Made by a program: the position numbers and the translations under genes. Below, in pieces: positions 3,661 through 6,010 of a stretch of DNA of 6,034 nucleotides. The notes under the pieces were generated by a model. The model worked only from the letters and a program-made list of their open reading frames with translations. It did not search any database and was not told where the DNA came from. Position 1 is the first letter of the stretch. Every line of letters starts with the position of its first letter. The stretch lies in contig NW_021829578.1 of NCBI RefSeq assembly GCF_006345805.1, forward strand, positions 1 to 6,034. The letters are read 5' to 3'. This DNA comes from Octopus sinensis (lineage: Eukaryota).

Positions 3661-3730
<70 letters not shown>
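3661..3730. repeat. (TA)n-(TG)n compound microsatellite
   Basis: Direct reading. Confidence 0.97.
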
Positions 3731-3732
<2 letters not shown>

Positions 3733-3934
3733 CCGTGTGACCTCGTGCGTACCGTTGGCGATTTTTTTTCCTCTGTCTTCCCTTATCAGGATCTTTCTTT
3801 CTATGTTTCCGACGAAGAGTTCCGCTCGAAACGTTAAACCCTCCTTCTTTCCTTCTTTCCTGAGCGTCCAATAATACTATATTTGTTCCACGTCCTCGCG
3901 TTGTTGTGTTTTTGTACTTTCTTGTTGGATTAAC
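3731..3934 (+). mobile_element. Probable Penelope-like element terminal-repeat (pLTR) remnant carrying a minimal hammerhead
   Basis: About 200 bp of pyrimidine-rich sequence bounded by (TG)n and (TA)n arrays. Contains a minimal type I hammerhead, a motif class known to mark PLE pLTRs. Confidence 0.6.
3805..3839 (+). ncRNA. Minimal type I hammerhead ribozyme motif (dimer-type)
   Basis: Stem I GUUU (3805-3808)/AAAC (3836-3839). Core CCGACGA (3809-3815, U4C variant) plus an extra A. Stem II GAGU/GCUC (3817-3820/3824-3827). GAAA at 3828-3831. Palindromic AACGUU replaces stem III. Predicted site GUU, after 3835. Confidence 0.75.
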
Positions 3935-4013
3935 TATATATATATATATTATATCTATATATTATAATATATATATATAGATATATATATATTATATATA
4001 TATATATTATATA
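3935..4013. repeat. Imperfect (TA)n microsatellite
   Basis: Direct reading. Confidence 0.95.
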
Positions 4014-4031: not shown

Positions 4032-4833
4032 TCGTTTTCTATGTTTTTGTTTTTTATGTTCTCGTTTCTCATTCTATCCACGTTTTTTTATGTCCTGTTC
4101 CCATACATGCATGTATCTATACGTAGGTATGTAAAAATATGATTGTATATATGCATATATTTATATATTATTTATATAATTATATGACCGAACAACGCAT
4201 TCTTGTCAAAGTAAGTTTTATTTTAATAATTACGATGCGCACCCTTATTCAATCTCTTTTCTGTCTCTCTATCTCCCACTCTTGTCCTTCTTTCTTTCTG
4301 TGTTTCTCTCCCACCCTTTCCCTATTCTTCTCCTCTCCCCTTCACCGTTCCCTCTCTCTCACTCTTCCTCCTTGACTTTCTCGTTGATCACACGTGACTA
4401 ACGGCCATTCTCTCTCTCTTCCACTTCCTTCCTAAAGACAAGACCTGCTCGTTTTTCTAGCGTTCACCACCTCACCTCGTCTTGACTTAACAACCCTCAC
4501 CGTTTGTTTTTACTGTCTTGTTCTCACTGTCCTGTTTTTCTTACCACTTTAACCCACCGCAAAAAGTCCCAAAATTTATTAATTTGCTTTGCGGAAAGGA
4601 CTGTTTTAATGACGTCGCGTCTTGTCCCTACCTTCGAACGCGGAGTAGATAAAACAGGGGACAACTGATGAAGGGAATGTTCTTTATTTTGCATATCTCG
4701 GTTCTCTATTTGTTTGTTTTTTATGTTCTCGTTTCTCATTCTGTCCACGTATTTTTTATGTTTTAACCCATATGTGCATGTATATATACATATATATGTA
4801 GGTATGTACATATATTACGTATATATGCATATA
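4032..4833 (+). mobile_element. Probable truncated Penelope-like retroelement remnant bounded by ~130-bp direct repeats
   Basis: Direct repeat 4032-4159 vs 4698-4833, with 30 nt identical (4046-4075 = 4713-4742). Internal CT-rich tract at about 4253-4430, hammerhead-like motif at 4601-4675, possible GIY-YIG C-terminal relic at 4187-4253. Flanked by (TA)n on both sides. Confidence 0.55.
4601..4675 (+). ncRNA. Permuted hammerhead-like RNA motif, copy 1
   Basis: GUC at 4619-4621. Stem I UUGUCCC (4622-4628)/GGGACAA (4658-4664) abuts CUGAUGA (4665-4671). Stem III UCGCGU (4615-4620)/ACGCGG (4638-4643). GAA at 4636-4638 is one A short of GAAA. Possible stem II UUC (4633-4635)/GGG (4673-4675). Confidence 0.55.

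Positions 4834-4902
<69 letters not shown>

Positions 4903-5199: not shown

Positions 5200-5237
<38 letters not shown>
5190..5237. repeat. (TA)n microsatellite (5' flank of SINE B)
   Basis: Direct reading. Confidence 0.97.
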
Positions 5238-5624
5238 GGCGCAGGAGTGGCTGTGTGGTAAGTAGCTTGCTAACCAACCACATGGTTCCGGGTTCAGTCC
5301 CACTGCGTGGCACCTTGGGTAAGTGTCTTCTGCTATAGCCCCGGGCCGACCAATGCCTTGTGAGTGGATTTGGTAGACGGAAACTGAAAGAAGCCCGTTG
5401 TATATATGTATATATATATGCGTGTGTGTGTTTGTGTGCCTGTGTTTGTCCCCCCTAGCATTGCTTGACAACTGATGCTGGTGTGTTTATGTCCCCGTTA
5501 CTTAGCGGTTAGAATAAGTACTGGGCTTACAAAAGAATAAGTCCCGGGGTCAAGTTGCTCGATTAAAGGCGGTGCTCCAGCATGGCCGCAGTCAAATGAC
5601 TGAAACACGTAAAAGAGTAAAGAG
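5238..5624 (+). mobile_element. Near full-length tRNA-derived SINE (family B) inserted in a (TA)n array
   Basis: Starts GGCGCAGGAG. A-box TGGCTGTGTGG at 5248-5258 and B-box GGTTCAGTCCC at 5291-5301. Internal (TA)/(TG) tract at about 5401-5440. Short repeated tail GTAAAAGAGTAAAGAG. (TA)n on both sides. Second copy at 2392-2685. Confidence 0.9.
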
Positions 5625-5671
5625 TATATATATATATATATAATATATATATATATATCATATATATATAT

Positions 5672-5742
<71 letters not shown>
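5625..5742. repeat. (TA)n-(GATA)n compound microsatellite
   Basis: Direct reading. Confidence 0.97.
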
Positions 5743-5744
5743 TA

Positions 5745-5965
5745 TCATACATCAAGTACAGGACATCACCAACGAGTGAAAAATACGTAAACACATAATG
5801 AGAGACAAGTACGCAACAAAATACCACATGAAGTCTAACCCCTCCTCTGTTGTCGACTGTTAATTACTCCCTATTTCGAGCTTTCAACGATAATATAGGA
5901 AAACTTCATTAAACAGCAGCATCCAAAGATTTTTAAAATATAAAATTTCTGGGGAAATTTTATAT
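5745..5965 (-). mobile_element. Diverged relative of the 4560-4790 element end (probable PLE terminal repeat), inverted orientation
   Basis: Minus strand shares colinear blocks with 4561-4757: CCCAGAAATTTTAT vs CCCAAAATTTAT, CTGTTTAATGAAG vs CTGTTTTAATGACG, GGAGTA, GACAAC, and TCTCATTATGTGTTTACGTATTTTT vs TCTCATTCTGTCCACGTATTTTT. Ends are approximate; the element may extend beyond the window. Confidence 0.55.
5840..5916 (-). ncRNA. Permuted hammerhead-like RNA motif, copy 2
   Basis: Minus strand. Stem III CCUAU (5899-5895)/AUAGG (5874-5870); site AUA (H = 5894). Stem I UUAUCG (5893-5888)/CGACAA (5855-5850) with one A-C mismatch. Stem II CUC (5880-5878)/GGG (5842-5840). Complete GAAA at 5877-5874. 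Core CAGAGGA (5849-5843, U4A variant). Confidence 0.55.
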
Positions 5966-5973
5966 TTTGACTC

Positions 5974-6010
5974 CGTCTGTTATTCACACTGGTAGTGTGA
6001 ATGACGGACG
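5974..6010. repeat. 17-bp inverted repeat with 3-nt loop
   Basis: CGTCTGTTATTCACACT-GGT-AGTGTGAATGACGGACG gives 15 Watson-Crick pairs and 2 G-T pairs on the plus strand. Confidence 0.85.

Follow-up and report, generated by a model that had tools for sequence, protein, structure and literature searches.

The minus strand near the end of the window raises the question of what RNA fold it once encoded and what kind of element carried it there. The window is the whole of one 6-kb contig (6,034 nt) of the 2.72-Gb animal genome of Octopus sinensis (G000), and an earlier note had read this segment as a second, diverged copy of a permuted hammerhead motif. The segment at 5834-5955 (minus strand) is probably a decayed, 5'-truncated split-strand hammerhead-type fold of a high-copy, non-coding retrotransposon, whose intact relatives likely cut themselves after NUH, processing the RNA of the element.

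The string on which the earlier reading was based is found at 5916-5840, as given, and the motif itself reaches wider, from about 5955 to 5834. The first copy has its core at about 4600-4675 on the plus strand, and the differences listed between the two copies are all borne out: stem III differs by three double swaps with pairing preserved, the sixth pair of stem I is C-G in one copy and G-C in the other, and the cleavage triplets are AUA in copy 2 and GUC in copy 1. In copy 2 GAAA is complete and the C block damaged, whereas copy 1, with its C block intact, is missing one A of GAAA. Comparison of subfamilies indicates that the paired changes are family traits and not the noise of single copies. 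The two motifs are also homologous, as their local alignment score of 52.5 against a shuffled mean of 24.0 is reached by 0/300 dinucleotide shuffles (z 6.2); they are connected through a third subfamily (z 15.7 and 14.7), and the unit starts of their two families match (z 10.2). The tails of copy 1 and copy 2 show weak homology (z 2.3; 6/300 shuffles), and BLASTN of the copy 2 family (F2) against the copy 1 family (A) gives no match except in TA repeats.

Copy 2 is the 5'-truncated 3' end of a non-coding F2 unit (5740-5955, minus strand; aligned to locus L002 from 5955 to 5740). At its 5' truncation lies a 15-nt inverted, fold-back piece (5954-5968) that mirrors 5935-5949, and its element ends at the 3' side in a (TA)n/(TATC)n microsatellite (5625-5742). 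An imperfect hairpin at 5972-6008, just upstream of the fold-back, falls outside the F2 family match. The copy of the fold in family A spans 4553-4675 (plus strand), within an element (4034-4835, plus strand) in which one unit follows a partial copy of its own tail at a spacing of 667 and which ends in (TA)n. A first look gave 958 candidates for F2 in G000, 40 of which were scored (identity 86-93%), and 4,058 for A. Both families consist of head-to-tail units without coding capacity; the F2 unit is about 800 bp (804 bp) in L009, where the motif spacing is 795 to 1599, and unit length is 760-763 bp in L098 and L044 and 667 bp in the window. Copies of both are 5'-truncated at many points and terminate in TA-rich repeats, and an inverted 5' piece is frequent among them. 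A microsatellite lies within 420 nt downstream in 26/30 F2 loci, 19 of them TA, a count that stands beside no background control in a genome where such repeats are common. A family pattern of G block plus C block has 2,142 exact matches against 1 in the control, one of C block plus tail has 8,717 against 0, and a pattern with a spacer one base longer matched 60 insertion variants.

The traits of a non-autonomous Penelope-like element are present, namely 5' truncation, partial head-to-tail tandems, inverted 5' pieces and the lack of a coding frame. No coding parent was found for F2 or A, and the arrangement that defines a Naiad, an N-terminal GIY-YIG and C-terminal reverse transcriptase (RT) upstream of the motif, is absent for these families. 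A search of the window against Rfam with E up to 10 returned no hammerhead and 25 microsatellite-type matches instead, and ARAGORN found no tRNA. High-copy SINE-like repeats occupy 5233-5633, 2414-2512 and 1326-1710, with 2414-2480 and 5259-5325 being 75% alike, and the region 3662-4004 is found again elsewhere in G000. Two ordinary type I hammerhead-like cores lie in other repeats at 2189-2213 and 3809-3832 (both plus strand), the latter with a damaged U4 and one extra base after A9.

The architecture of the fold is best seen across subfamilies. A loose screen requiring the core and 4 bp of stem I was passed by 158 copies, 149 of which fall into 10 subfamilies, the 9 in clusters of fewer than three being dropped. 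The letters CUGAnGA, GAAA and NUH are present in the majority sequence of 10/10 subfamilies. From 5' to 3', the parts follow as Px, a hairpin Ph, the stem II strand with G10.1, an outer helix P0, a stem III strand, NUH and a stem I strand; a short linker then leads to the second stem II strand, GAAA, and the second strands of stem III, P0 and stem I, before CUGAnGA and the closing strand of Px. All of these helices stay paired while their letters differ between subfamilies. Stems I, II and III adjoin the core with G10.1-C11.1 and A15.1-U16.1, and stem II is formed with the upstream strand. This holds for G10.1-C11.1 in 10/10 subfamilies, with the G located 22-30 nt upstream of the cut site and starting a run of 5-7 pairs. 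The Px strand farther upstream is the partner of the bases after A9; it is followed by Ph and then G10.1, with no gap before G10.1 in 9 subfamilies and one base in F2. P0, present in 10/10, begins directly after the stem II strand and stops directly before the stem I strand. The earlier model of three permuted stems, with stem II following CUGAnGA, is thus not supported, as the stem II strand is upstream and two further helices clamp the break.

On the minus strand of copy 2, truncation has left only a remnant of the Px 5' strand at 5952-5954, in a family where the 9-bp Px is paired in 246/293 cells. Ph follows at 5924-5951 with one A-C mismatch, and the stem II 5' strand at 5918-5923, in which G10.1 is 5923 and U 5921 is bulged, has its partner at 5878-5882. 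This G10.1 is G in 29/29 relatives, and the upstream stem II is paired in 156/174 cells of F2. The next part is the 5' strand of P0 (5908-5916, partner 5857-5864), the helix that links stems II and I at their far ends. GAA at 5905-5907 stands opposite AGUA (5865-5868) in an internal loop, placed between P0 and stem III, that we take to be a loop-E or bulged-G-like motif; the same loop is found in subfamilies F2, A/B, C, D, E and G/H, and other letters occupy the place in I, J, K and the Naiad-type subfamily, the last of which presumably forms something like a kink-turn. Block S (5888-5901) comprises a stem III strand, the AUA triplet (5896-5894) and a stem I strand with a private G>A at 5891, and the cut would be placed between 5894 and 5893. 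Block G (5869-5882) contains the stem II 3' strand with C11.1 at 5878, GAAA (5877-5874) and the other stem III strand. The stem I 5' strand and catalytic strand, with a private U4>A at 5848, lie at 5843-5855, and the Px 3' strand (5834-5842) is immediately 3' of A9.

The lesions of copy 2 were examined in its 29 closest relatives, where, as the earlier note proposed to check, both damaged bases are restored: U4 (5848) is U in 29/29 and 5891 is G in 28/29. The remaining core positions are kept in 23-29 of these 29 (an unscreened F2 set), and contigs of runs X1 and X4 have the family bases at 5848 and 5891; runs X13 and X20 gave no cover over copy 2. The lesions are therefore private to copy 2, which has incomplete hammerhead core letters (U4>A) and, with its stem I mismatch and lost clamp strand, is predicted to be inactive. 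Even repaired at U4 and stem I it would be an incomplete molecule, because truncation at 5955 removed most of the 5' clamp strand. Copy 1 has lesions at 4556 (Px), 4595 (G10.1) and 4613 and lacks one A of GAAA; the base at 4595 is G in 26/29 relatives, so the A is private, 29/29 differ from it at 4613, and the full GAAA is present in 17/29. Relatives of copy 1 also occur in contig runs of organisms B, C, D and F, where contigs speak to presence only. The contrast drawn earlier, in which copy 1 lacks the G10.1-C11.1 pair that copy 2 retains, stands as regards copy 1, for another cause (the private G>A at 4595), and the pair in copy 2 is 5923 with 5878, not the one placed after CAGAGGA.

The pairing of the helices is supported by exchanges of strands between families. 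For stem II, with five distinct strand pairs, 25/25 positions are Watson-Crick within families as opposed to 50/100 when strands are swapped between families; the corresponding counts are 30/30 and 54/150 for Ph, 31/32 and 110/224 for stem III, 24/25 and 58/100 for stem I, and 9/12 and 22/36 for Px. In the covariation check across subfamilies that the earlier note had called for, 4/5 positions of stem I and 3/4 of stem III have at least two Watson-Crick pair types, Px covaries at 1/3 junction positions only, and a mixed G/H cluster with poor Px and Ph was left out of the counts for those two helices. In individual copies, 87-100% of cells of the upstream stem II pair. Such percentages lean upward because helices II, Px, Ph and P0 came from a pairing-maximising search, the subfamilies are kin, and the core and stem I were pre-screened. 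The view that selection in the source elements maintained the structure and that each copy decayed separately is upheld nonetheless, with private lesions on the one side and covarying stems I and III on the other.

A full descriptor of the fold matches 41 times in the 896 kb of G000 loci that were fetched, as opposed to 0 times once that sequence is reversed, and intact natural copies with Px and Ph exist (e.g., L005, L021, L053, L200 and L289); neither window copy satisfies it. With 12 F2 copies as input, RNAalifold returns Ph, P0 and stem III and pairs the upstream strand with the catalytic strand, an inactive register. This second register of the upstream clamp strand in the F2 alignment could act as an off switch. 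When 41 copies are folded by a nested method, which cannot model pseudoknots, the probability of the upstream stem II averages 0.09; inconsistent nested folding is expected for a double pseudoknot, yet is no proof of one.

In the mechanism that we favor for this decayed split-strand fold, Px and Ph would abut and stack, holding A9 beside G10.1 without a backbone link, so that a normal hammerhead core may form as a double pseudoknot. Intact copies would cut after NUH, and cleavage would process head-to-tail transcripts into RNAs starting at the cut. The cleaved RNAs may then be copied into TA-rich targets by an autonomous retroelement, with a Naiad Penelope-like element the most likely candidate, the outcome being many short inserts that start just past the cut. 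Candidate circular intermediates would account for tails ahead of full units.

The link to Naiads was sought in the 3' ends of the elements. By eye, the last 330-420 nt of 34/54 consensus sequences from the supplement of Craig et al. 2021 (PMC8557442), as far as available, show the layout clearly in 5/34 ends (Naiad_Obim, Naiad_Ovul and three near-identical coral Naiads) and possibly in two more, and it is seen in none of the rest of the 34. Searching the available supplement with the letters of family A returned nothing relevant. In the same source (File S5), the 3' ends of oyster, pearl-oyster and hemichordate Naiads have another conserved GC-rich motif just past the stop codon, distinct from the split hammerhead, which could be another structured RNA. 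The octopus Naiad-type motif, one of the 10 subfamilies, has 444 exact matches in G000 as opposed to 0 in controls, and 4/15 Naiad-like GIY-YIG loci are followed downstream, on the same strand, by a decayed piece of it. Just one 5' fragment was found when a full-length Naiad was sought in G000, and none of loci L361-L387 satisfies the full descriptor. As the Naiad-type motif shares no sequence with F2 (z 0.0), the two are linked by fold and insertion anatomy only. A wider proposal, offered tentatively, is that the fold is a seventh natural hammerhead topology, in which a junction of helices bridges the break between A9 and G10.1, and that it is the missing ribozyme of Naiads. It may have spread to other retroelements and thousands of non-coding derivatives, with RNA that would be cut, re-ligated to circles and reverse-transcribed from an internal TA-rich priming site into head-to-tail copies.

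An overlapping account, possible but doubtful, keeps the active split-core ribozyme and changes the partner, having it mobilised by a HERO-like LINE or a PLE with C-terminal endonuclease in place of a Naiad. Among pattern matches in metagenomes and viral contigs, 2/47 pass stems I and III, these being the near-identical loci L394 and L402, in which the upstream stem II, Px, Ph, P0 and the GAA/AGUA loop are also seen by eye; 43/45 metagenome matches fail and 0 of the 2 viral ones pass. At L394:1432-1545 (plus strand) and in L402 (minus strand) the split-core layout occurs in unrelated letters, about 870 nt upstream of a zinc-finger-like frame. That the loop of copy 2 recurs beside this frame, which we take to resemble HERO, speaks for a partner other than a Naiad, whereas the L402 protein has no match in G000 and no Pfam family, with weak zinc-finger leads in Atlas only. 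A young, high-copy Penelope-like family in G000 (L383-L387), whose frames reach 784 aa, with RT ahead of a C-terminal GIY-YIG, and which has two tandem copies at one locus, also makes such a partner conceivable, but about 480 nt of its 3' sequence examined hold no such motif. The tandem tail copies, inverted 5' pieces and (TA)n ends fit instead the description of Naiads, in the portion of the report available (PMC8557442), and the downstream motif pieces at the four GIY-YIG loci point the same way.

If intact copies cleave, insertion 5' ends might record it. After 2/156 copies had been dropped as internal deletions, the 5' ends of 154 copies, found by C block or tail, were placed relative to the predicted cut: 36 fall at 0..+19, 8 at -20..-1 and 8 at +20..+39 (binomial p about 1e-5 vs the bin before and 3e-5 vs the bin after), with 22 at -60..-1. 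In F2 alone (43 copies) the counts are 10, 2 and 2, and a separate, pattern-biased set of 132 has 27 ends at 0..+15 vs 25 at -100..-1. As a footprint of cleavage, the pile-up is suggestive and not proof. A reading that we regard as unlikely treats the fold as real yet non-catalytic, a recognition or packaging signal for reverse transcriptase, with the pile-up caused by the enzyme stalling at the folded core. Few ends fall at 0, the peaks being at +5..+9 and +15..+17, and the second of these is just 3' of stem II, where stalling is expected; the Naiad-type set lacks a pile-up (0/25 ends in 0..+19), and the competing register of F2 in RNAalifold also suits this reading. Yet the ends at +5..+9 fall past stem II, the AT-rich hairpin upstream of the cut has almost no ends, and catalytic letters and NUH are kept in 10/10 subfamilies while the helices vary freely. 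The pile-up fits run-off from cleaved RNA minus a few bases, and its second peak could be stalling at stem II.

The fold could also be a plain type-SGC hammerhead, in which the strand ahead of GAAA forms stem II with the bases that immediately follow CUGAnGA; this is very improbable. The earlier note had placed G10.1 at 5842, directly after CAGAGGA, and in F2 this register gives G-C, G-U, G-C; skipping one base after A9 yields five pairs, and the PLE-style hammerheads in the window also have a base after A9. But the register begins with A-C in 8/10 subfamilies and T-C in 1, opening with G-C only in F2, and stem II was misread because the register looks canonical in copy 2's own family only. 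It has 7/20 Watson-Crick positions over four distinct strand pairs and a pairing probability of about 0 in 41/41 copies, and the bases after A9 covary with the upstream Px strand rather than with the plain SGC partner. Two further candidates, a type SGC carrying one additional base after A9 and pairing of G8-A9 with the stem II strand, were both dropped on the results for subfamily pairing, covariation and folding. Chance resemblance within AT-rich decayed repeats can hardly be credited, for while Rfam finds no hammerhead at E up to 10 and the window copies fail the full descriptor, the pattern, descriptor and shuffle controls and the identical junction geometry in unrelated sequences speak against it, and the covariation counts refute it.

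Among known elements, the split-strand fold of F2 and A resembles the type I hammerheads of Penelope-like pLTRs and non-LTR retrozymes in that the core sits near the 3' end of head-to-tail units, whether non-coding or PLE-derived (PMC6765202; bioRxiv 10.64898/2026.07.22.740005, available passages). Those hammerheads are described there as three-way junctions in circular permutation, whose stem III is short and which often work as dimers, whereas the fold seen here is non-circular and split, with a long stem III extension. A non-LTR retrozyme has a type I hammerhead in each tandem unit, and the motif in these units is not type I. With Naiads, whose description was available in part, the families share partial tandems, inverted 5' pieces and possibly (TA)n targets, and octopus and coral consensus ends carry the layout; unlike Naiads, F2 and A are non-coding and do not match the Naiad-type motif in sequence, and many bivalve and hemichordate Naiad ends in the available supplement are without the layout. 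Craig et al. 2021 reported, in the text available, no canonical hammerhead in Naiads and flagged 'HHR_core' or 'HHR_half_core' (PMC8557442), and for these 'half cores' a split core offers a direct explanation. The pile-up of insertion ends makes the role of hammerheads in Penelope-like elements testable, and thousands of copies in many subfamilies provide a ready mutational scan of what would be a non-circular hammerhead of an animal genome.

Among known hammerheads, the CChMVd plus hammerhead tolerates one extra base (A10) between A9 and G10.1 (PMC3705267, available text), as opposed to the two helices and break in strand order seen here; the junction after A9 is a natural insertion point for ribozyme engineering. 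No prior description of the layout was found in the text of the literature searched, to which Weinberg 2015 (PMC4509812) and Lunse 2017 (PMC5785218) may add for novelty. A passage of PMC13725137 cites Weinberg 2015 for hammerheads 'containing additional helices', and the passages available of PMC13725137, PMC10162972, PMC3088659 and PMC6765202 hold no case of such a layout. A split-core fold would escape Rfam and RNAmotif searches.

The closest relative is type SGC. In the available text of Eckert et al. 2023 (PMC10085705), six hammerhead permutations are possible on the assumption that CUGAnGA is inseparable from its stem II strand. The type-SGC ribozymes (HRIMA-1 and variants) cleave in vitro; a linker of ~3 nt separates their stem I strand from their stem II strand, a helix connects these two stems at their far ends, and they are found in metatranscriptomes and not in genomes of known organisms. 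The order S-G-C, the core letters, the short linker, the far-end helix and the double pseudoknot are shared with the fold described here. P0, equated with their interaction helix from the paper's text, may act likewise as the stem I-II 'interaction' helix, and the fold can be viewed as a type-SGC layout re-opened between A9 and G10.1; on that same text, joining the ends of SGC and then opening it there would give the order observed. The type-SGC ribozymes differ in that their block C is unbroken and stem II comes directly (within 1-2 nt) after CUGAnGA, whereas here the stem II strand is at the 5' end, two extra helices clamp the gap, and the fold sits in repeats of an animal genome. In contrast to types I, II and III, with their circular order C-G-S and nested three-way junction, the order here is S-G-C. 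The fold is therefore outside types I-III and type SGC by their membership criteria, though all core letters and stems are present, and it matches none of the six permutations in the published text consulted, where all hammerhead parts in this order were not found. A natural, covarying family that separates CUGAnGA from its stem II strand breaks the rule from which those six were derived.
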